Assembly: GCA_965277805.1 (NCBI GenBank)
Contig: OZ255842.1
Span: forward strand, 5,408,001-5,472,000
Direction: 5' to 3'
Origin: Candidatus Lustribacter sp.
Lineage (GTDB): Bacteria > Vulcanimicrobiota > Vulcanimicrobiia > Vulcanimicrobiales > Vulcanimicrobiaceae
DNA: 64,000 nucleotides
Part shown: one piece after another, positions 8,408-35,889 of the stretch
How the letters are laid out: every line of letters begins with the position of its first letter
Position numbering within the stretch: the stretch's first letter is position 1
Notes under the pieces: model-generated
The model's input: only the letters and a program-made list of their open reading frames with translations
Database searches by the model: none
What the model was told of the DNA's origin: nothing
Position numbers and translations under genes: made by a program

Positions 8408-9496
8408 TTAGATCGGCTCGAAGTCGCGCAACTGCGGGATAACGTCGGTGCCGAAAAGGCGGATCGATCGCATCAGATCGTCCTCGGCCATCTCGCCGAA
8501 GTTGAACTCGCCGAAGAACGTATTGAACGAACCCTCGACCGCCCACTTGCGTAGTTGTGCGGCCACGGTATCTGGGGTGCCGAGCAAAATCAATTCGTGC
8601 TTCAAGAGATATTCCGGATCGAGGATGTTCATGGTGATTTCAGCGGAGTCGGGTTCGCCGCGCGCCAGGAAGTATTCGGCCGTCTCGACTTGCTTGCGGC
8701 GGATCTCATCCTTGTCGTCGGAGTAGGAGAAGAAGCCTTTGTAGGCGTTCGCCGCATCGTCGAGCGCGACGTCGAGCGCGCGCTGATACGTTTCATCGAC
8801 GTAGACGACCGTGCTGAAGGCGATGTTCGGCGTGCCGGGCCAGCCCGCGGCCTTCCAACCGGCGATGTAGGGCGCGTAGCGTTCCTTTGCTTTCGCGCGC
8901 GGAAACATCAAGAAGTAGCCGGTGTGCAAGCCTTCACGCGCGCAGAATTCGAGCGTCGGAATATCGCGCGTTTCCATCCACATCGGCGGATGCGGACGCT
9001 GAATGGGCATCACGCTGAGATCGAAGTCGGTATACGGAATACGCTGGCCGTCCCACGTGACGTGCCCGTCGCCGGCATATGCGGCTTTCATGAAGCGCGC
9101 GAACTCGAGCGTCACCTCGCGCCGGTCGGGAAAGCTCGCCTTATACGGTTCGAAGTAGGCCGGCAGAATGCCGGGCACCAAACCGACTTCGGTGCGTCCG
9201 CCGGTCAACTGATCGGTCAGCGCGATCTCCTCGAGCAACCGCACCGGATGATGCAAGGCAACGACATGTCCCATTGCGCCCACGCGCAAACGCTTCGTTC
9301 GCGCGGCCGCGGCGACAGCGTAGAGGTTGGGTGAGGACATCCAACTTTCTTTGGGCGTGAAATGATGTTCGACCGAAAATCCGTAGTCGAATCCGAGTTC
9401 ATCGGCCAGCACCAACTCGCGCCACAACTGTTCGTAGCGCTCGTGCGGCGACATGCCGCGCTTGCCCCAGACGTGCGCGAAATGCGCGAATCTCAT
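8408..9496 (-). CDS. Luciferase-like (LLM) flavin-dependent monooxygenase
   Basis: ADELGFD...EHHF, RTKRLRVG, HPVRLLEEIA.TD.LTGGR, PIQRPHPP. Confidence 0.92.
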   Translation of the reverse strand: MRFAHFAHVWGKRGMSPHERYEQLWRELVLADELGFDYGFSVEHHFTPKESWMSSPNLYAVAAAARTKRLRVGAMGHVVALHHPVRLLEEIALTDQLTGGRTEVGLVPGILPAYFEPYKASFPDRREVTLEFARFMKAAYAGDGHVTWDGQRIPYTDFDLSVMPIQRPHPPMWMETRDIPTLEFCAREGLHTGYFLMFPRAKAKERYAPYIAGWKAAGWPGTPNIAFSTVVYVDETYQRALDVALDDAANAYKGFFSYSDDKDEIRRKQVETAEYFLARGEPDSAEITMNILDPEYLLKHELILLGTPDTVAAQLRKWAVEGSFNTFFGEFNFGEMAEDDLMRSIRLFGTDVIPQLRDFEPI

Positions 9497-9546
9497 CGAC
9501 GGAAAACCTCCGCGGTGCAGGGCAACGCACACCGTCTAGCCAAAAG

Positions 9547-9554
9547 TGTATTCA
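9547..9554. promoter_or_regulatory. Putative GntR/FadR-type operator (TGTATTCA, 1 mismatch to TGTATACA)
   Basis: In the divergent promoter region, immediately before a TATAAC -10-like hexamer. Confidence 0.35.
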
Positions 9555-9607
9555 GTATAACCACGAGCTGAGTGAGGGTCAACCCTCCACTCCGAGGAGA
9601 ATCGCCC

Positions 9608-10546
9608 GTGATACGCCGACGCGCTCTGCAACTGCTCGCCGGCACCGGCGCGGCCCTCGCAGCGTCCCCCGTTGCTGCACAAAATCTCATTCCGATCCGG
9701 GTCGGAACGTTCGCGTCCGAATCCACCGGCGGCATTTTCTATGCGCAAGATCAAGGTTTTCTTGCCAAGCACGGATTGACGGCAGTTATTAACATGGCCA
9801 CCGGCGGAGCTGCCGTCGGCGCTGCGCTGCTCGGCGGCGATCTCGATCTGGGTGAAGCCGACGTCGTGACGGTGGCGATCGCCCATGACAAGGGTATCCC
9901 GTTTCAGTTCGTCGCTCCCGGCGAGCTGCACACCAACACGTATCCGACCTTGGCCGTTGTCGTCGGGTCAGCGGCGATTCAGAGCGGCAAAGATTTCAAC
10001 GGTAAGACGATGGCCTGCAACGTCGCGCGCGGTTTCGGCTCGCTGATCACGAACGCGTGGATCGACAACAACGGCGGCGACTCGAAGACCGTGAAGTGGG
10101 TGGAAATGCCCTTCGGTTCGCTCGTCGCGGCGACGCAAAAGGGCACGATCGACGGCTACTGCGCACCCGAACCGTTCGTCGATCTCGGCGGCGCGGCCGG
10201 CTTGCACGTGCTGCTGATGGACAAGAACCCGATTGCAACCAGTTACATCCAAGGCGGCTGGTTCGCGAGCAAAGACTGGATCAAAGCGCATCCGTCGATC
10301 GTCAATGCCTTTAGCCTGGCGATTCGCGAAGCGAACGAGTGGGCGAATGCCAATCCTGCTGCGACCGCCGCGATCATCTCGAAGTACAGCAAGGTTCCGG
10401 TCAACGTCATCAACAGCATGAAGATGCGCGGGCAATACGAAGCCGTGTTCCATAAACCGACGATGCAGCCGCTGATCGACACCGCCGCCAAGTACGGCTA
10501 CATCTCGAAGTCCTTTCCCGTTTCCGACATCATCGCCAACACGTGA
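9608..10546 (+). CDS. Solute-binding protein, SsuA/THI5 (NitT/TauT) family, Tat-like signal
   Basis: GAGGAG RBS before GTG 9608; RRRALQLL; QGFLAKHGL, DFNGKT, PEPF, WANANP. Confidence 0.85.
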   Translation: MIRRRALQLLAGTGAALAASPVAAQNLIPIRVGTFASESTGGIFYAQDQGFLAKHGLTAVINMATGGAAVGAALLGGDLDLGEADVVTVAIAHDKGIPFQFVAPGELHTNTYPTLAVVVGSAAIQSGKDFNGKTMACNVARGFGSLITNAWIDNNGGDSKTVKWVEMPFGSLVAATQKGTIDGYCAPEPFVDLGGAAGLHVLLMDKNPIATSYIQGGWFASKDWIKAHPSIVNAFSLAIREANEWANANPAATAAIISKYSKVPVNVINSMKMRGQYEAVFHKPTMQPLIDTAAKYGYISKSFPVSDIIANT

Positions 10547-16022: not shown

Positions 16023-16847
16023 ATGCTAGCGACCCGAAGAAGCATTTCGGTCAAACGCCTCTCGCCGCACATCGGCGGCGAGATCAGCGGCGTCGATCTC
16101 ACTAAGCCGGTCAGCGACGAGCAGATCGCCGAAATCAAGGACGCCTTGATCGAGAACGGCGTGATCTTTTTCCGCGATCAGCCGATGGATCTCGAAACCC
16201 AGGTGAAGTTCGGCCGCCGCTTCGGCGACCTGCATATTCACTCGGGGATGAAGGGGCTCGACGACAAGTATCCCGAGGTCCGGCCGATCCACGCCGACGC
16301 CGATTCCAAGCACATCGCGGGCGAAGACTGGCACACCGATCTCTCGTGCGATCCGATTCCGCCGATGGGCAGCATCCTGCACATCTGGGAGCTTCCGCCC
16401 CTCGGCGGCGATACGTGCTGGGCCAGCATGTACGCGGCCTACGATGCGCTCTCGCCGCGCATGAAGACGCATCTCGAAGGCATGACGGCGACGCACGACG
16501 GCCGCATCGCATTCGGCCGCTTCAATCCGTCCGGAACGTACCCGATCTCGGTGCATCCGGTCGTTGCAAAACATCCTGACACCGGCCGCAAGCTGCTCTA
16601 CGTCAACCGCGGCTTTACGTCGCACATCAACGACGTCTCACCCGAAGAGAGCGCCGCGCTGCTCAACTACCTCTACGCGCATCTGGAAAAACCGCACTTC
16701 CACGTGCGTTTCGTCTGGGCGAAACACACGGTGGCGTTCTGGGACAATCGCTGCACACAGCATCTCGCGGTGTGGGATTACTTTCCGCAAACGCGCAACG
16801 GCTATCGCGTACAGATCGAAGGCACCCAGCCCCCGATCCCCGCGTAA
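16023..16847 (+). CDS. TauD/TfdA family Fe(II)/2-oxoglutarate dioxygenase
   Basis: IGGEISGVDL, WHTD, GGDT, HPVV..HP.TGRK.LYVN, WDNRCTQH. Confidence 0.95.
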   Translation: MLATRRSISVKRLSPHIGGEISGVDLTKPVSDEQIAEIKDALIENGVIFFRDQPMDLETQVKFGRRFGDLHIHSGMKGLDDKYPEVRPIHADADSKHIAGEDWHTDLSCDPIPPMGSILHIWELPPLGGDTCWASMYAAYDALSPRMKTHLEGMTATHDGRIAFGRFNPSGTYPISVHPVVAKHPDTGRKLLYVNRGFTSHINDVSPEESAALLNYLYAHLEKPHFHVRFVWAKHTVAFWDNRCTQHLAVWDYFPQTRNGYRVQIEGTQPPIPA

Positions 16848-29727: not shown

Positions 29728-30465
29728 CTACATCGAGCCGGGGGCGGGTTTCTTCGGCGTTGGCGTGACGTTGGGGTTCATGTCGGCCCAGGCGCCGTTG
29801 GGGTTCGGCAGTACCCACGGAAAGAGATCCCACATCGCCGGATGCAAGAAGATGAATTTCACTTGCGACGGATCCGTCAATCCGGGCAGGCCGGTTTTGA
29901 CGAGCGCGACTTTGTTGGCCGGAATGTCGGGGACGTTTTCGCTCAGCGTGCCGCCCGCGTCGGTGAATTTTTGCACCGGCATCGCACCGAGATGCAGCGA
30001 ACCGTCGGCGGCGGTGAAGCCCCAGTGCATGTGCGCGGCGCGATGAACCCAGCGCGCGGGATCGATCGCGTAGCCGAACAGCGACGTCGGTGCGTTCGGC
30101 GATTTGTCTTGCAGAATCGTGTAGTCGACGCCGAGCAGCCGGCCGTTGGCGTCGTACCAGAGCTGGTTGGGAACGTCGAGATCGATCGAGTTCCACACTT
30201 TCAAGTTTACGTAGCTGATCGCGCCGGTATTATCTTCGCCCGTGTACTGGAAGTAGCCGGCTTTCTGCGCCGATGCGACCGTCGGGTAGAGTTTCGGAAT
30301 GTCGACCTGGATCTTCGCGATGAACGGCTGTTCCGCGGGCGTCGGCATCGGCGGCATCTTCGTAGGTGTGGGCGCCGCCATCGGCATCGGCATCGTTTGT
30401 GCGAATGTACGTGACGGCGCAAGCGTACACAAAGCGATGAACGAAAGAACGGTTTGTCGATTCAT
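29728..30465 (-). CDS. Secreted hypothetical protein
   Basis: Signal peptide, Met/Pro-rich linker, AQKAGY..P.QLWYD..WVHRAAHMH..PNPNG.W..NP. Confidence 0.75.
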   Translation of the reverse strand: MNRQTVLSFIALCTLAPSRTFAQTMPMPMAAPTPTKMPPMPTPAEQPFIAKIQVDIPKLYPTVASAQKAGYFQYTGEDNTGAISYVNLKVWNSIDLDVPNQLWYDANGRLLGVDYTILQDKSPNAPTSLFGYAIDPARWVHRAAHMHWGFTAADGSLHLGAMPVQKFTDAGGTLSENVPDIPANKVALVKTGLPGLTDPSQVKFIFLHPAMWDLFPWVLPNPNGAWADMNPNVTPTPKKPAPGSM

Positions 30466-30552
30466 GACTGCCTCCAGCAAGTGACCTCTGCGGCGGCCTT
30501 CGCGCGCTACGCGCGTAACGCCCGCAAGAAACTCTTAGCGAATGCTCAGGCT

Positions 30553-32031
30553 TTAGACGACTGCGTCGAGCGGCAGCGTTGCGGCGCGCGGTGCGTAGGC
30601 AGCCCAAGCCGCGGCGAGACGTTCGACCCCGGCGACCAGCACCTCGGGATCGAGCACGAACGGCAACCGCAAGCGCCGCGCATGGCGCTCCGCCGATGAG
30701 AAGACCGGCCCGGGTGCGATCGTGACGCCGAAGCGCGCAGCCTCCAGCGCGAAGCTGGCCGAATCGCCGTGCGGTAACTCGATCCAGAGCGACGAGCCGC
30801 CGCACGGTTCGTTGCGGTTCCACGACGGAAGTTCGGCTTCGAGTGCGCCGGTCAGCGTGCGATAGCGTTCGGCCAATTGCGCGCGGCGCTCGTCGCGCAC
30901 GCGATCGCGCAGCGGCAAGAGTTCCGCGCACAACGCTTGCCCAACCAGCGACGTGCCGAGATCCGCGACGATCTTGAGTGGTGCGATGCGGCTGATCATG
31001 TGCGCTTCGCCGCGCACCCAGCCGATGCGCAGCCCGCCCCAGAAAAGCTTGCACGCGGAGCCGATCGAGAGCACCGTCGCGCCGCCCGCGAGCGCTGCGA
31101 TCGGCGGCGGCGGCGCGACGTCGTAGATCGAGATATCGCAGAGCGTCTCGTCCTCGACGATCGTCCAGCCTTCGCGTTCGGCCATCGCCGCAAGCGCGAC
31201 GCGCCGTTCGGGCGCGAGCACGGTGCCGGTCGGGTTGTTGTAGGTCGTCGCAACGTACACGGCGGCCGGGATGCGCGCGGCGGGCAAGCGGTCGAGTTCT
31301 TCGACGTTGGCGCCGTCGCCGTCGACCGCGATCGCCACGATATCGGCGCCGGCGGCGCGAAACGCATCGAGCGAGGCCGGGTTCGTCGGGTCTTCCATCG
31401 CTACGCGGTCGCCGCGGAAGAGCTGCGCGACGAGCGCGATTGCCTGCTGCGCGCCGCTGGTCACGATGATCTGCTCGGGATCGGTTGGTAATCCGCGGGC
31501 CGTGTAGCCGCGCGCGATCTCGCGCCGCAGCGCGGGCAGTCCAAGCGGCAGATAGCCGGGCGTTTCGCGCGAGAGCTTCTGGAGCTGCTTAGCGAGCCGC
31601 TCGCCGGCCGGCCCAAGTTCGCGCGAGCCGGGCAGCGCCGCGATCGTGAACTCCACCATCGAGCGTGGACCGTCGCGGTTGTCGACGATCGAGACGAGGT
31701 GGCCCGGCGAGAAGCGCCCACCGCGCGTCAGCGGGCCGGGTGGTCCGGCGTAGGTGCCGCTGCCGCGCTGCGTGTGGGCCCGGCCTTCGGCCTTTAGCCG
31801 GTCGTACGCGGCGACCACCGTGCTGCGGCTGATCCCAAGCCGCTGGGCCAGGTCGCGCTCCGATGGCAGGCGGGTGCCGGCTGGGATCGTGCCACGGAGG
31901 ACGGCGGACTCGAGGGCGCTTGCCAGCCGAGCCAGCATTGGACCCGAGCCACGCGTCCAGTCAGCCAGCGCAGCCGCAACGTCGGCGACCTGGGCATGCG
32001 GGGTCGGGGCGGAATGGCGCTCGAGTGGCAT
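30553..32031 (-). CDS. MocR/GabR family regulator (GntR wHTH plus PLP aminotransferase domain)
   Basis: GTRLPSERDLA..LGISRSTV..AY; TSGAQQA, NNPTG, SACKLFWGGLRIGW. Confidence 0.93.
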   Translation of the reverse strand: MPLERHSAPTPHAQVADVAAALADWTRGSGPMLARLASALESAVLRGTIPAGTRLPSERDLAQRLGISRSTVVAAYDRLKAEGRAHTQRGSGTYAGPPGPLTRGGRFSPGHLVSIVDNRDGPRSMVEFTIAALPGSRELGPAGERLAKQLQKLSRETPGYLPLGLPALRREIARGYTARGLPTDPEQIIVTSGAQQAIALVAQLFRGDRVAMEDPTNPASLDAFRAAGADIVAIAVDGDGANVEELDRLPAARIPAAVYVATTYNNPTGTVLAPERRVALAAMAEREGWTIVEDETLCDISIYDVAPPPPIAALAGGATVLSIGSACKLFWGGLRIGWVRGEAHMISRIAPLKIVADLGTSLVGQALCAELLPLRDRVRDERRAQLAERYRTLTGALEAELPSWNRNEPCGGSSLWIELPHGDSASFALEAARFGVTIAPGPVFSSAERHARRLRLPFVLDPEVLVAGVERLAAAWAAYAPRAATLPLDAVV

Positions 32032-32035
32032 GGTG

Positions 32036-32065
32036 TGGACTGCTTTTGTCTGGCCTCCTCAACCA
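32036..32065. promoter_or_regulatory. Putative MocR operator (TGGACT/TGGCCT direct repeats plus inverted AACCA)
   Basis: In the 64-bp divergent gap; MocR proteins typically bind combined direct and inverted short repeats. Confidence 0.35.
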
Positions 32066-32095
32066 TTCCCTCGCGCCGGCAATTATGTGGGGCCG

Positions 32096-33778
32096 ATGCT
32101 GCTCGAGGCGGATGTGCTCGTGATCGGCGCCGGGGCCGCCGGTCTCATGGCAGCGCGCGCTGCCGCCGCGGCCGGCGCGTCGGTCGTGATCGCGGACAAG
32201 AGCATCATCGGCCGGGGCGGCGCCACCATCATGGCCCAGATGACCACCGCCGTGGCCCTCGGAGCTGCCGAGCCGGATTCGGTCGAGCTGCACGCGCTCG
32301 ACACGTGGGAGGGCAGCCGTGATCTCGGCGACCACGCGATTATCGACGTCATCTGCACGCGCGCGCCCGATGTGATTCGTGAAGTCGAAGGCTACGGTGC
32401 GAATTGGGCGCGCACGGCCGACGGCAGCTACAGCCAAGTGTTCGCACCCGGACACTCGCGCAAACGCTGCGTGTACGTCGACGTGCTGCGCACCGGCGAT
32501 GCGGTTTCGCAAGCGTTGCGCAGCGTCGTGCGCCGCGACGGCAACGTCGTGCGCCTCTCCAACGTGATGCTCACGAAGCTTGCGAAAGACGCCGATCGCG
32601 TTACCGGCGCGCTCGGCTTCGCGATCGAGCAACTCGAACCGGTGGGCATCGCGGCAAAGACCACGATCGTCGCGACCGGCGGGCTCACGTTCCTCTACGC
32701 GCGCAACAGCGCATCGGCGAATATGACCGGCGACGGTTTTCTGCTCGCCGCCGAAGCGGGTGCGACGCTGCGCGACATGGAGATGGTGCAGTTCTTTCCG
32801 ATCGCGCACCTGTATCCGCCGCTGGTGCAACTCGATCCGATCATGTGGGATCCGTTTCGCTACAAGCTCGGCGGCCGTTTGCTCAACGGCAACGGCGAAG
32901 AATTTCTCGGCGAGAGCGGTGATGCGTCGGGCGCGTACACGACGCCGCGCGATACCGCCACGTACAAGATCTTTCGCGAAGTCGAAGCGGGCCGCGGCTC
33001 GCCGCACGGCGGCGCGTATCTCGATTTCCGGATGATCGGCGCGGACGCACTCAAGGCCGGTTTCGGACCCGTCATCGACATCCTCGCGCGTCAGGGCATC
33101 GATCTTACGCGCGACATGGTCGAGGTGTCGCCGATGGCGCACTTCATGCTCGGGGGCATCGCGGTGGACGCGTCGATGCAGACCGGCGTCGAAGGACTGC
33201 TCGCCTGCGGTGAAGCGATCGCCGGCATGCACGGCGCCAATCGCCTCTCGGGCAATGCGATCACCGAGGCGCTCGTCACGGGCCGCATCGCGGGCGAAAT
33301 GGCCGCCGCACGCCAAGCAATCGCGCGCACCTCGATCGAAGCGGCGCTGGCGGAAGAGTGGGCGCAGCTGAAGGCGCTGTGGCATCCGCGCGCGGTTTCG
33401 CGCGACGATGGGCCGGTCGATGCGTTGAAGGCGCGCTTGCAGCAGACGATGTGGGACAACGCGGGACCGCTGCGTACCGGTCCGCAGCTCGAACGCGCGC
33501 TGGCCGACATCCGCGCGCTCGAAGCGGAGAGCGCCGGGCTCGCGCTGGCGCCGGTCGAGGCGTTCGCCTTGAATCTGCAAGAACGCGTGGAATTGCGGAT
33601 CATGCTGGCGGTGGCGGAGTCTATCGTGCTGCCGGCGCTCGAGCGGCGCGAATCGCGCGGCGCGCACGTGCGGCTCGACTTTCCCGAACAAGATGCCGCC
33701 ACGGTCGCGCACATCCTCGCGCGCAGCGACGAGCGCTGGACGATGACCTCGCGCGAAACCGCGGCGGCTTCGGCATGA
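32096..33778 (+). CDS. SdhA/FrdA/NadB-superfamily flavoprotein with atypical active site
   Basis: DVLVIGAGAAG, ATGG, TGDG, DMEMVQFFP, HFMLGG, ACGE..GMHGANRLSGNA, RRESRGAH.R.DFP. Confidence 0.9.
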   Translation: MLLEADVLVIGAGAAGLMAARAAAAAGASVVIADKSIIGRGGATIMAQMTTAVALGAAEPDSVELHALDTWEGSRDLGDHAIIDVICTRAPDVIREVEGYGANWARTADGSYSQVFAPGHSRKRCVYVDVLRTGDAVSQALRSVVRRDGNVVRLSNVMLTKLAKDADRVTGALGFAIEQLEPVGIAAKTTIVATGGLTFLYARNSASANMTGDGFLLAAEAGATLRDMEMVQFFPIAHLYPPLVQLDPIMWDPFRYKLGGRLLNGNGEEFLGESGDASGAYTTPRDTATYKIFREVEAGRGSPHGGAYLDFRMIGADALKAGFGPVIDILARQGIDLTRDMVEVSPMAHFMLGGIAVDASMQTGVEGLLACGEAIAGMHGANRLSGNAITEALVTGRIAGEMAAARQAIARTSIEAALAEEWAQLKALWHPRAVSRDDGPVDALKARLQQTMWDNAGPLRTGPQLERALADIRALEAESAGLALAPVEAFALNLQERVELRIMLAVAESIVLPALERRESRGAHVRLDFPEQDAATVAHILARSDERWTMTSRETAAASA

Positions 33779-34089
33779 GCGGAACGACGACGACGCTCGC
33801 GATCGCGCGCGCCGTTCCGGGCGGCGAGCCGTGCGTCGAAGAGTTCGTCGTGCCGTACGAAGACGGGCTCACGCTGCTCGACGCGATCATCTGGATCCGC
33901 CGTCATCACGATCCGTCGCTGGCGGTGCGTTTCTCGTGCAAGGCCAATGCCTGTAAGGAATGTTCCGCCCTCATCGACGGCAAGCCAGGCTTTTTGTGCG
34001 CTCAGCGCGCAGTGCCCGATGCAACAGCGCGAATCGGACCGCTGCCCAAACCGCGCTTGATCCGCGACCTCGTGACCGAACTGTACTGA
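33775..34089 (+). CDS. Stand-alone 2Fe-2S protein (SdhB/FrdB N-terminal domain only, 104 aa)
   Basis: TLLDA..I....DPSL..RFSCKANACKEC...IDG....LC..IGPL...IRDLV, then stop; ATGA overlap with the flavoprotein. Confidence 0.85.
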   Translation: MSGTTTTLAIARAVPGGEPCVEEFVVPYEDGLTLLDAIIWIRRHHDPSLAVRFSCKANACKECSALIDGKPGFLCAQRAVPDATARIGPLPKPRLIRDLVTELY

Positions 34090-34105
34090 TGGAGACGAGC
34101 GAGTA

Positions 34106-35557
34106 ATGCCGAAAAACCTGCGCACGTTCATGCGCGATGCCGTCGAGCGCTTTCCCGGTTCGATCAAAGTGATCGACGTGCCGGTCGAGCGGCGCTTCGG
34201 TATCACCGCGTATGCGGCGAAGCTCGCGCAGACCGGCGAGTACAAAGGTCTGCTCTTCAACAACGTGATCGGATCGCGGTTTCCGGTTGTGACCAACCTG
34301 ATGTCGAGCTACGACCGCATGGCGATGGCGATGAACTGCGGGATCGAAGAGCTGCCGCAAGTCTACGGCACCCGCGTGAAGAAACCGATCGCGCCGGTGA
34401 TCGTCGCGCGCGACGCCGCGCCGGTGAAAGACGTCGTGATGCGCGCCGACATCGACCTTGCGACCTTGCCGATCCCGGTGCACAACGCGCTCGACGGCGG
34501 GCCGTACCTCACCGCCGCCGCAACCGTCATGCGCGATCCCGAAACGGGCGCGCAGAACGTCGGCATCTACCGCCATCACGTGTTCAACAAGACCGAGATG
34601 GGCGTGTGGTTCTTCGGCAGCCATCACGGCAGCGACATCGTCGGGCGCTACGAGCGGCGGGGTGAGCGCACGCCGTTCGCGATCGCGATCGGCCACCATC
34701 CGGCGTTTTTGATGGGTGCGGCCGCGCGTTTGCCCGGCATCGGCGGCGAATACGATGCGGCCGGCGCGCTGCTCGGCGAGCCGGTCGAATTGGTCGAAGC
34801 CGAAACCTCCGATCTGATGGTGCCCGCGCAAGCGGAATTCATCATCGAAGGCTACATCGCGCCCGGGCAGCTCCGGCGCGAAGGGCCGTTCGGCGAGTGG
34901 CCCGGCCACTACCTGAACGAAGAAGACGTGCCGATCATGACCGTCACCGCGATCACGCACCGGCGCGATGCGATCTTTCAGGACATCATCGGCGCGGGCC
35001 GCGAGCATTTGCTCATGGGCGGCATTCCGCGTGCCGGCAGCATCTATCGCAGCGTGAAGGACGTCGTTCCCGACGTCGTCGCGGTCAACGTGCCGCCGCA
35101 TAGCCGGATGCACTGCTACGTATCGATCAAACGCCGGCACAACGTCGATGCGAAGCGCGCGGCGTTTGCGGCGCTGAATACCGAGCCCGAGAATTTGCGC
35201 GCCGTAATCGTCGTCGATGACGACATCAACGTCTACGACGACGGTGACGTGCTGTGGGCGGTGGGGACGCGTTTCGACGCCACGCGCGATCTCACGATCG
35301 TGCAGGGTTGGAGCGGGCCCGGCGGATTATTGCCGACCAACTGGGAGTACTTCGCTGACGGAACCAAGACGGCGCGGGCTTCGAGTGCGATCATCATCGA
35401 CGCTACGAAGCCGCCGCCACCGGTACCGTATCCCCCGCGCACGCAAGTTCCGGACGACGAAGTGAATCGTGTCGATCTCGGAACGATGAGCGATCTCACC
35501 GGGGCAAACCCATACCTGCGCGCCGCTGAGGAAGCGGCGCGCGTAGGTTTGGTTTAG
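34106..35557 (+). CDS. UbiD family prFMN-dependent (de)carboxylase
   Basis: DLATLPIP.H...DGGPY.T, NVGIYR, VPA.AE.IIEG, EGPFGEW.G.Y, VIVVDDDI, IIDATK. Confidence 0.93.
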   Translation: MPKNLRTFMRDAVERFPGSIKVIDVPVERRFGITAYAAKLAQTGEYKGLLFNNVIGSRFPVVTNLMSSYDRMAMAMNCGIEELPQVYGTRVKKPIAPVIVARDAAPVKDVVMRADIDLATLPIPVHNALDGGPYLTAAATVMRDPETGAQNVGIYRHHVFNKTEMGVWFFGSHHGSDIVGRYERRGERTPFAIAIGHHPAFLMGAAARLPGIGGEYDAAGALLGEPVELVEAETSDLMVPAQAEFIIEGYIAPGQLRREGPFGEWPGHYLNEEDVPIMTVTAITHRRDAIFQDIIGAGREHLLMGGIPRAGSIYRSVKDVVPDVVAVNVPPHSRMHCYVSIKRRHNVDAKRAAFAALNTEPENLRAVIVVDDDINVYDDGDVLWAVGTRFDATRDLTIVQGWSGPGGLLPTNWEYFADGTKTARASSAIIIDATKPPPPVPYPPRTQVPDDEVNRVDLGTMSDLTGANPYLRAAEEAARVGLV

Positions 35558-35889
35558 GAGGCCTTTTTCTCGGCGGCAGCCGCGTCGGCGGCAGCCTTCT
35601 TGCCTTGCTCGATCAGGGCTTTGACCTTCTGGCCGCCCTTTTGGCCGATCTCTTCGTAAAAAGCCGGGCCGTAACGGTCGCGAGTGGCCTCGCCGCCTTT
35701 TTTGCCGCCTTTTTTACCGATGGCCTCGTAGAAAGCGTGGCCGTGAGCCTTTTTCGTAGCCTGACCACCCTTGCGGCCGATCATCTCGTAAAATTCGGGG
35801 CCATACTTTTTCTTGACGGTCTCGCCGCCTTTTTGACCGGCTTCGCGGACGCTCATGCCGGGTTTACGCTCTGGAGTGGGGGTGGACAT
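35554..35889 (-). CDS. General stress protein with KGG repeats (GsiB/YciG-like)
   Basis: MSVREAGQKGG..FYEMIGRKGG..FYEAIGKKGG..FYEEIGQKGG. Confidence 0.9.
   Translation of the reverse strand: MSTPTPERKPGMSVREAGQKGGETVKKKYGPEFYEMIGRKGGQATKKAHGHAFYEAIGKKGGKKGGEATRDRYGPAFYEEIGQKGGQKVKALIEQGKKAAADAAAAEKKAS

Follow-up and report, generated by a model that had tools for sequence, protein, structure and literature searches.

A soluble SdhA-like flavoprotein with a [2Fe-2S]-only partner and a linked UbiD decarboxylase: a candidate module for catabolism of carboxylated heterocycles

A 64,000-nucleotide (nt) stretch of the genome of the soil bacterium Candidatus Lustribacter sp. (GenBank assembly GCA_965277805.1, contig OZ255842.1, positions 5,408,001 to 5,472,000 of the forward strand; here called the window) carries three co-oriented genes for an SdhA/FrdA-superfamily flavoprotein, a stand-alone [2Fe-2S] protein, and a UbiD-family decarboxylase, divergent from a gene for a MocR-subfamily regulator (Table 1). 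Residue patterns and gene context support a soluble enzyme in which an SdhA-like subunit with noncovalently bound flavin adenine dinucleotide (FAD) would be joined to a 2Fe-2S-only partner, and these two proteins are the invariant core of the module among its relatives. With moderate confidence, we propose that the three genes contribute to the breakdown of a heterocycle that bears a carboxylate; its ring would most likely be five-membered and of the furan or pyrrole type, or else a related lactam. The window holds a trimmed version, with the regulator, the putative reductase, and the decarboxylase; the ATP-binding cassette (ABC) importer and the molybdenum (Mo) hydroxylase found in relatives are missing.

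Flavoprotein family and active site

The flavoprotein has the domain composition of succinate dehydrogenase (Sdh) and fumarate reductase (Frd) flavoproteins (Pfam FAD_binding_2, E = 5.8e-56; Succ_DH_flav_C, E = 3.8e-21), but all Sdh, Frd, and NadB models in NCBIfam match it at about half their cut-offs. The top model was TfrA (355.8 versus a cut-off of 718), the scores for sdhA_frdA_Gneg (TIGR01812) and nadB (TIGR00551) were 334.9 versus 567.3 and 281.6 versus 452.75, respectively, and every Sdh/Frd equivalog fell below its cut-off. The closest solved structures are Sdh/Frd flavoproteins, with further Protein Data Bank (PDB) matches to 1chu and 6t85.

Residues were mapped by alignment to the annotated SdhA, FrdA, and NadB proteins of Escherichia coli K-12 and to the genome's own canonical SdhA, as well as by PDB alignments. 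A preliminary description of the locus had reported that the covalent-FAD His and the dicarboxylate-binding His were missing and that the Arg of TPRD and the HFMLGG and GANRL motifs were kept. The motifs that it named (RGGATIMAQM, QFFP, TPRD, HFMLGG, and GANRL) are all present, and the alignment places Gly42 in the column of the covalent-FAD His (SdhA H45/FrdA H44) and Phe234 in that of the distal-carboxylate His (SdhA H242/FrdA H232/NadB H244). A further substitution emerged at the hinge Thr (SdhA T254/FrdA T244/NadB T259), where the flavoprotein has Trp251, followed by Asp252 in the column of SdhA E255; between the Phe234 and Trp251 sites lies a 5- to 6-residue insertion relative to the E. 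coli homologues. The catalytic Arg (SdhA R286) is retained as Arg285, and the proximal-carboxylate ligands SdhA H354 and R399 are retained as His349 and Arg383. Gln48 aligns with SdhA Q50 and not with FrdA E49. Among 17 aligned family members from at least four phyla (58 to 86% identical), G42, F234, W251, D252, R285, H349, and R383 are all invariant. Lacking the covalent-FAD His, the flavoprotein is predicted to bind FAD noncovalently, and the loss of the distal-carboxylate ligands fits a monocarboxylate substrate.

In a 23-row tree, the 19 family rows formed a single clade (100/100) on a branch of length 2.62, a placement that carries a long-branch warning and has as its outgroup four rows only (E. 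coli SdhA, FrdA, and NadB and the genome's own SdhA). Within the clade, the window flavoprotein and that of the related locus L013 cluster with those of Bacillota (100/99). The top profiles (TfrA, SdhA/FrdA, and NadB) and the closest structures would agree with a flavoprotein that is after all a soluble fumarate reductase, succinate dehydrogenase, or L-aspartate oxidase. We consider this extremely unlikely given the half-cut-off scores, the replacement of the dicarboxylate-site His and Thr by Phe and Trp, the separate clade, and a canonical SdhA/SdhB pair with all motifs that is encoded elsewhere in the genome. Sequence comparison thus supports placing the flavoprotein outside the true Sdh, Frd, and NadB enzymes.

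An Fe-S partner with a single domain

The protein encoded after the flavoprotein matches Pfam Fer2_3 (E = 9.4e-17) and holds four predicted cluster ligands, Cys55, Cys60, Cys63, and Cys75, with the Cys invariant in the family alignment. Residues 19 to 103 align with residues 18 to 107 of E. coli SdhB (238 residues) and 27 to 107 of FrdB (244 residues), and the end of the protein aligns with SdhB residue 107-108. Since the alignment stops there, the protein ends where domain II, with the 4Fe-4S and 3Fe-4S clusters, would start, in agreement with what the preliminary description had proposed. Its match to the TfrB model (51.3 versus a cut-off of 385) covers only positions 6 to 97 of 488.

Relatedness to the flavoprotein was confirmed for 597 of 600 matched stretches. 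The family occurs in at least 597 species-level genomes from at least six phyla, and we analyzed the best 80 loci. Genes were counted by tblastn with defined queries, because length-based calling of open reading frames (ORFs) misassigned several genes in high-G+C loci of metagenome-assembled genomes (MAGs). A mini Fe-S homologue follows the flavoprotein in 79 of the 80 loci; in the exception, L074, the sequence ends 2 nt past the flavoprotein match. The 79 partners have an estimated length of 104 to 128 amino acids (aa; median, 112) with four Cys each, and the 4Fe-4S motif CxxCxxCxxxC occurs in none of them, so that a recent truncation of the Fe-S gene, as an account of its short length, fails. 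The spacing is C-x5-C-x2-C-x11-C in 75 partners. The other four, all in Eremiobacterota loci (L011 to L014), have C-x4-C for the first two Cys, as in canonical SdhB. In a single case (P0070, 675 aa), the flavoprotein and mini Fe-S protein are naturally fused. From homology, adjacency, and this fusion, we infer that the two proteins form an SdhA/SdhB-like heterodimer.

UbiD decarboxylase and its linkage

The window UbiD scores above the family cut-off (TIGR00148, 317 versus 244.85) and above none of the specific NCBIfam equivalog cut-offs. Its closest solved structures are 6h6v and 6h6x (279 bits), followed by E. coli UbiD (175). We take 6h6v/6h6x, whose PDB title is generic, to be the furandicarboxylate decarboxylase HmfF of Pelotomaculum thermopropionicum. 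In the alignment, His301 of the window UbiD (within REHLLMGG) falls at the HmfF specificity position, which in 6h6v is the His of REHLLLGG. HmfF H297 is reported to be key to furan specificity, and the pyrrole-2-carboxylate enzyme has Asn there (PMC7976604). A UbiX gene lies elsewhere in the genome, unlinked to the locus (C1:498818-499333; NF004685, 241.8 versus a cut-off of 188).

A UbiD ortholog (52 to 100% identity) lies within 7 kb of the flavoprotein gene in 23 of the 80 related loci (3 Eremiobacterota, 16 Bacillota, the unclassified spore-former-like MAG locus L043, and Acidobacteriota loci L053, L075, and L081), and a distant UbiD (26 to 35% identity) is close by in 8 more; the other 49 have no UbiD within 7 kb. 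In one of the related loci (L014:11535-12952), the UbiD ortholog matches in two tblastn segments with a 142-aa frame from the start, by frameshift or assembly error. Searches of 251 Paenibacillaceae genomes detected the flavoprotein in 22 and the UbiD ortholog in 21. Each of these 21 also has the flavoprotein, with both genes on one contig at a distance of up to about 3.4 kb, whereas G490 has the flavoprotein alone. None of the 229 flavoprotein-negative Paenibacillaceae genomes holds a UbiD ortholog at an E value of ≤1e-120. Because these genomes are kin, the co-occurrence is no statistical test. The coupling of flavoprotein and UbiD is conserved but facultative, and it is clear even so in Paenibacillaceae; the linkage to ubiD proposed in the preliminary description thus holds across phyla and as an optional association.

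The tight co-occurrence in Paenibacillaceae could also be expected if the flavoprotein/Fe-S pair were a redox helper of UbiD, acting, for example, in oxidative maturation or reactivation of prenylated flavin mononucleotide (prFMN) and not on a substrate. Some UbiD enzymes are known to depend on helper proteins for activation (PMC10865409). We give this alternative only a slim chance, as 49 of the 80 loci have the pair with no UbiD nearby, all 17 aligned members retain the Arg/His/Arg triad of fumarate reductase catalysis, and the 13 other UbiD paralogs of the genome have no such partner.

Fuller clusters in relatives

In Bacillota, the flavoprotein/Fe-S pair sits inside one-directional clusters that hold an NMT1/SsuA-type ABC importer, UbiD, the 5-oxoprolinase family proteins PxpB, PxpC, and PxpA, and a three-subunit Mo hydroxylase of the xanthine dehydrogenase type with XdhC and MobA. 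They also hold a 319-aa homologue of 4,5-dihydroxyphthalate decarboxylase (PDB 9jp7, E = 8.7e-56) to which Pfam assigns no domain. No coenzyme A (CoA) ligase was seen in the clusters. The cluster PxpB scores above the 5-oxoprolinase equivalog cut-off and the cluster PxpA above a subfamily cut-off, and in five of five Bacillota genomes checked, the cluster copy is the genome's only LamB_YcsF (PxpA) gene.

Of the 76 loci whose upstream DNA was long enough for the count, 28 have a same-strand gene for a ring-opening amidohydrolase that ends less than 400 nt before the flavoprotein gene. PxpA accounts for 21 of these and the creatininase family for 7, so two unrelated hydrolase families occupy the same position. 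Structural matches gave no clue to the ligand: the creatininase-like protein matches creatininases in the PDB, and the binding protein of the importer matches only 3qsl, a "putative exported protein." The preliminary description had inferred a soluble desaturase/reductase coupled to the (de)carboxylation of a monocarboxylic acid and had suggested a screen of aryl-propionate/acrylate and heteroaromatic acids. Soluble enzyme, monocarboxylate-type pocket, and UbiD coupling are supported; the ABC importer, Mo hydroxylase, second decarboxylase type, and lactam hydrolase of the fuller clusters point to heterocycle or lactam catabolism and not to aryl-propionate/acrylate chemistry.

Closer to home, a search of 301 genomes from the phylum of the window detected the flavoprotein in only 4, the window genome included, and the gene content of these and other Eremiobacterota loci is graded. 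G201 has flavoprotein, Fe-S protein, Mo hydroxylase, ABC ATPase, permease, binding protein, and UbiD, in that order, with a hydantoinase-B gene 1.1 kb past UbiD; L013 and L014 have flavoprotein, Fe-S protein, three ABC genes, and UbiD; G145 matches L013 and L014 without the binding protein; and the window and L011 have flavoprotein, Fe-S protein, and UbiD without ABC genes. G283 has a dienelactone hydrolase gene directly upstream of the flavoprotein and no UbiD. The NMT1-type ABC genes in the operons of L013, L014, G145, and G201 are orthologs of the Bacillota ones (45 to 63% identity), and the large subunit of the G201 Mo hydroxylase is 59% identical to its Bacillota ortholog.

Proposed route and alternatives

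On the heterocycle reading, UbiD, using prFMN supplied by the UbiX encoded elsewhere in the genome, would remove a ring carboxylate, as its homology suggests. The flavoprotein and its 104-aa [2Fe-2S] partner would form a soluble heterodimer built like the interface between SdhA and the N-terminal domain of SdhB, a proposal based on residue pattern and gene context. With the proximal ligands kept and the distal ligands swapped, this enzyme would act on the C-alpha/C-beta bond beside a single carboxylate: His349 and Arg383 would bind the carboxylate, Arg285 would serve as the acid, and the remainder of the substrate would be a neutral ring held in an aromatic pocket formed by Phe234 and Trp251. 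The likely direction would be reduction of the C=C bond of an unsaturated lactam or lactone acid, which is favored because the FAD is predicted to be noncovalent, with electrons entering through the exposed 2Fe-2S cluster from an external redox partner. The substrate would derive from a heteroaromatic acid that is decarboxylated by UbiD and, in the fuller clusters, also hydroxylated by the Mo hydroxylase. The product would be a saturated lactam acid, and the PxpABC evidence makes 5-oxoproline the likeliest single candidate. In relatives only, the ring might then be opened by PxpABC or by a creatininase-family or hydantoinase-type enzyme.

The two enzymes could also work in the opposite order, with the flavoenzyme dehydrogenating a carboxylate whose ring or chain is wholly or partly saturated, to give an alpha,beta-unsaturated or heteroaromatic acid that UbiD then decarboxylates, much as the preliminary description had it. 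UbiD/prFMN enzymes need alpha,beta-unsaturated or aromatic acids as substrates, which such a dehydrogenation would provide, and in the window both enzymes stand alone with no hydroxylase between them, as consecutive steps would have it. Gln48 also matches SdhA Q50 and not FrdA E49, a position that is presumably linked to directionality. On the other hand, the noncovalent FAD suggested by Gly42 is typical of reductase and oxidase members of the superfamily, covalent FAD being needed for succinate-type C-C oxidation, and in Bacillota the only 5-oxoprolinase genes of the genome adjoin the flavoprotein gene, as would suit an enzyme that yields a saturated lactam and does not desaturate one. We therefore regard the opposite order as unlikely, albeit with an appreciable chance of being correct.

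A second alternative concerns ring size. A pyridine or pyridone carboxylate such as dipicolinate, picolinate, or quinolinate could be the substrate of a route in which UbiD takes an alpha-carboxylate and the Mo hydroxylase makes a pyridone, whose ring would be reduced by the flavoenzyme and then opened by lactam hydrolysis. The Mo hydroxylases and the 4,5-dihydroxyphthalate decarboxylase homologue of the fuller clusters would suit such a route, and many carriers are dipicolinate-releasing spore formers (Bacillus, Paenibacillus, Cohnella, and Alicyclobacillus). The only dipicolinate route described, encoded by the dip cluster of Alcaligenes, is monooxygenase based, leaving room for a second route (PMC11472048). 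We nevertheless give six-membered N-heterocycles only a small chance, as the substrate ring of the closest solved UbiD is five-membered, the clusters showed no downstream genes for a six-carbon amino-dicarboxylate, and PxpABC and creatininase act on five-membered lactams in characterized members.

Several observations weigh against the heterocycle route as proposed. The window genome has no PxpA or creatininase-family gene and no ortholog of the cluster ABC importer or Mo hydroxylase (its top matches to the cluster genes are 31% identical for the Mo large subunit and 29% for the binding protein); with importer, hydroxylase, and hydrolase missing, the proposed pathway is incomplete at this locus. 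The His conserved in UbiD is of the furan and not the pyrrole type, an uneasy fit with a lactam product, and UbiD itself is absent within 7 kb of the majority of related loci. Pseudomonadota loci have different neighbors, among them LeuCD-like aconitases, an HpcH aldolase, and Rieske and flavin ring hydroxylases, which argues that the flavoenzyme family is not tied to one pathway. As to the electron donor, only the Binatia/Thermodesulfobacteriota clade has a gene for an SthA-like NAD(P) flavoprotein directly after the Fe-S gene, in four of four loci examined (L045, L046, L047, and L068; about 9050-10510 in each). Substrate, ring size, heteroatom, and redox direction, finally, are all things that we infer.

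The SthA-like protein of L047 scores 595 bits versus a transhydrogenase equivalog cut-off of 465, and its position hints at an NAD(P)H link in that clade; it may be the electron partner or a chance neighbor. Upstream of the pair, L045 and L046 have divergent Amidohydro_3 and TENA/THI-4 genes; L068 has Amidohydro_3 only, and neither was identified in L047. In the Nitrobacteraceae loci L067 and L083 (3600-6970), the pair follows LeuC/LeuD-like aconitase subunits, with an HpcH/HpaI aldolase nearby, and this branch may act on acyclic polycarboxylates.

The incomplete locus could also be a decaying remnant, in which the importer and hydroxylase have been lost and the three genes no longer serve a pathway. 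Such decay would agree with the graded gene loss from G201 through L013/L014 and G145 to the window and L011 and with the rarity of the flavoprotein in the phylum. Against it, all three reading frames are intact, translational coupling is retained, and the ratio of nonsynonymous to synonymous substitution rates (dN/dS) is 0.02 to 0.17 across the flavoprotein, Fe-S, and UbiD genes (0.07 to 0.16 for the flavoprotein and 0.02 to 0.07 for UbiD), which indicates purifying selection on all three. In the comparison with L011, which has the same trimmed form, dN/dS is 0.02 to 0.08. We consider a remnant very unlikely.

The genome shows striking paralog expansions. There are 14 UbiD genes (the other 13 are 27 to 36% identical to the window UbiD), about 18 matches to the Mo hydroxylase large subunit, about 30 matches to the 4,5-dihydroxyphthalate decarboxylase-like protein, and 15 hydantoinase-B genes, of which one, at a distance of 1.5 Mb from the locus, shares 73% identity with the G201 gene. 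These expansions suggest a specialist on (hetero)aromatic carboxylic acids. A second cluster, at about C1:484,500-502,000, includes the UbiX gene given above together with a Mo hydroxylase (FAD subunit at about 484574; large subunit at 485494-487734), a UbiD paralog (488279-489565), an NMT1-type binding protein (493335-494132), and an ABC permease (501052-501786).

As a more specific conjecture, to which we attach a fairly small chance, the flavoprotein/mini-Fe-S pair would carry out the reduction in a redox-neutral "hydroxylate, then reduce" route from pyrrole carboxylates through 5-oxoproline to glutamate, the nitrogen counterpart of the furandicarboxylate/furoate pathway. Possible substrates would be pyrrole-2,5-dicarboxylate or the pyrrole di- and tricarboxylates that come from oxidized melanin and tetrapyrroles. 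UbiD and the dihydroxyphthalate decarboxylase-like enzyme would strip the extra carboxylates and the Mo hydroxylase would add the 5-oxo group; the two electrons of the latter would pass to the stand-alone 2Fe-2S protein and on to the SdhA-like enzyme, which would saturate the ring. The window organism would carry the minimal form of this route, as a specialist on oxidized heteroaromatic polycarboxylates of soil organic matter.

Gene layout and the MocR regulator

The ATG of the Fe-S gene overlaps the TGA of the flavoprotein gene (ATGA), and the UbiD gene starts 16 nt past the Fe-S stop codon, as the preliminary description had noted. It had also noted the lack of a membrane anchor, and indeed we found no SdhC/D-like gene near the locus and no long hydrophobic run in the flavoprotein, the Fe-S protein, or UbiD. 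The flanks are unrelated, with genes for DnaG, RpoD, and a PAS-GAF-GGDEF protein upstream and for a KGG-repeat stress protein and an SCO1/SenC protein downstream. The stress protein (35554-35889, minus strand; 111 aa, KGG-repeat/LEA_5-like) is convergent with UbiD, and the two genes share 4 nt at their stop ends. A TauD/TfdA-family dioxygenase gene 14 kb upstream (16023-16847, plus strand; Pfam, 4.4e-65) is unrelated to the finding.

Table 1. Features of the flavoprotein/UbiD locus, in window coordinates
Feature	Position	Strand	Description
MocR-subfamily regulator	30553-32031	minus	492 aa, divergent from operon; Pfam GntR + Aminotran_1_2
MocR/flavoprotein divergent intergenic region	32032-32095		64 nt
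SdhA/FrdA-superfamily flavoprotein	32096-33778	plus	560 aa; FAD_binding_2 + Succ_DH_flav_C
Stand-alone [2Fe-2S] subunit	33775-34089	plus	104 aa; Pfam Fer2_3 alone
UbiD-family (prFMN) decarboxylase	34106-35557	plus	483 aa; UbiD_N + UbiD + UbiD_C

The regulator has the two MocR domains (GntR, 5.7e-15; Aminotran_1_2, 2.2e-25) and falls below the cut-off of every named MocR model (435.1 versus 487.4 for MocR_like_YczR; 210 versus 320 for PdxR). Its Lys328, in SACK-LFWGGLRIGW, stands in what we take to be the expected context of the pyridoxal phosphate-binding lysine. A YczR-type regulator of a membrane protein was rejected, as the score is below the cut-off and the divergent partner is the flavoprotein gene; nor does the gene downstream of MocR qualify as a yczE partner, being without a Pfam match and not membrane-like. 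The latter (29728-30480, minus strand) is a 250-aa ORF with a signal-peptide-like start and a Pro/Thr/Met-rich linker and matches nothing in Pfam or NCBIfam.

MocR adjoins the flavoprotein in only 4 of the 80 related loci (L011 to L014) and in G145 of the same genus, always in the same divergent arrangement; the two other Eremiobacterota loci, G201 and G283, gave no MocR match. With UbiD orthologs in 23 of the 80 loci, the four genes are not the conserved unit that the preliminary description had anticipated. In L012 (5580-6939), the MocR ortholog matches in two pieces with residues 221 to 259 missing, from a broken gene or an assembly error. The divergent arrangement suggests that MocR regulates the operon, probably with an amino compound as its effector. 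An alignment of the window with L011 to L014 revealed one invariant block in the intergenic region, CTCAACCATTCC (32058-32069), which may be an operator or promoter; apart from this block, the intergenic repeats are short and unconserved, and no MocR operator could be defined in the 64 nt. A promoter scan returned 0 promoter-like sites versus 0.7 expected, and a terminator scan returned 8 terminator-like sites versus 4.6 ± 2.4 expected, none of them informative. Within 32080-32095, an AATTATG box lies 9 nt before the flavoprotein ATG, and a Shine-Dalgarno-like run is absent, and the flavoprotein mRNA may be leaderless or nearly so.

Relation to known systems and significance

The module resembles complex II (SdhA/SdhB and FrdA/FrdB) in the two flavoprotein domains, the catalytic Arg, the proximal His/Arg, and a mini Fe-S protein homologous to the N-terminal 2Fe-2S domain, which is the part that contacts the flavoprotein. 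It differs in that it has no covalent-FAD His, carries Phe/Trp as distal residues, has the 5- to 6-residue hinge insertion, lacks the 4Fe-4S/3Fe-4S domain and membrane anchor, and reaches about half the family cut-offs. TfrAB of methanogens, whose TfrA is the best-scoring model, is likewise a soluble, anchor-less member of the superfamily, but the flavoprotein score is far below its cut-off, the Fe-S partner covers only the start of TfrB, and the gene context here is catabolic and not methanogenic. NadB, flavocytochrome c3, and UrdA share solubility and noncovalent FAD, and UrdA has a distal pocket suited to an acrylate that carries a heterocycle. However, NadB retains His244 and Thr259 and has no Fe-S partner, whereas UrdA and flavocytochrome c3 receive electrons from FMN or heme domains instead of a 2Fe-2S protein, and the similarity to UrdA is weak (E = 5e-17).

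On the decarboxylase side, HmfF offers the closest solved UbiD and the conserved specificity His, and the hydroxymethylfurfural/furoate pathway (hmfABC and hmfFG of Cupriavidus basilensis) also pairs UbiD with a Mo hydroxylase. The relation is at the level of paralogs, and the clusters here differ in having lactam hydrolases and an SdhA-like enzyme and no CoA ligase. The logic of the proposed route is that of 6-hydroxynicotinate metabolism in Eubacterium barkeri, in which a Mo hydroxylase makes a lactam tautomer, 6-hydroxynicotinate reductase saturates the ring, and enamidase, an amidohydrolase, opens it; that reductase belongs to a different protein family, and the route has no UbiD step. The regulator resembles MocR/GabR types in its winged helix-turn-helix and aminotransferase-like domains and in diverging from its presumed target genes; below all named MocR cut-offs and with no adjacent yczE-type membrane gene, it differs from them.

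A literature search, with most subscription journals outside its reach, found no description of a module made of an SdhA-like protein, a 2Fe-2S-only protein, and UbiD, in keeping with the preliminary description, which had not recognized a described pathway. The Cupriavidus lumazine cluster includes a UbiD xanthine-8-carboxylate decarboxylase (PMC12391406); it and the Alcaligenes dip cluster (PMC11472048) are different systems. The parts of the module come from known superfamilies, but nothing in that search matched their combination, in which a flavoprotein with a rebuilt pocket and no anchor has a 2Fe-2S-only partner and is steadily linked to lactam hydrolases and to a UbiD whose closest solved relative is HmfF.

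Relatives of the flavoprotein are annotated only as "FAD-binding protein" or [quoted passage not shown] The family would be a large uncharacterized branch of the fumarate reductase superfamily with a new subunit makeup and a rebuilt pocket, and its steady company of prFMN decarboxylases, Mo hydroxylases, lactam hydrolases, and NMT1-type importers points to an undescribed degradation of heterocyclic carboxylic acids. The module is of good interest because it is widespread, only generically annotated, and present in several cultured type strains, in which its function is directly testable. Cultured carriers include Paenibacillus barengoltzii NBRC 101215, Neobacillus muris DSM 110989, and Halalkalibacter oceani. 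If confirmed, that function would assign a role to many proteins now annotated in these generic terms, would represent a new type of ene-reductase for biocatalysis on lactam and lactone acids, and would help explain how soil bacteria use oxidized N-heterocycles.

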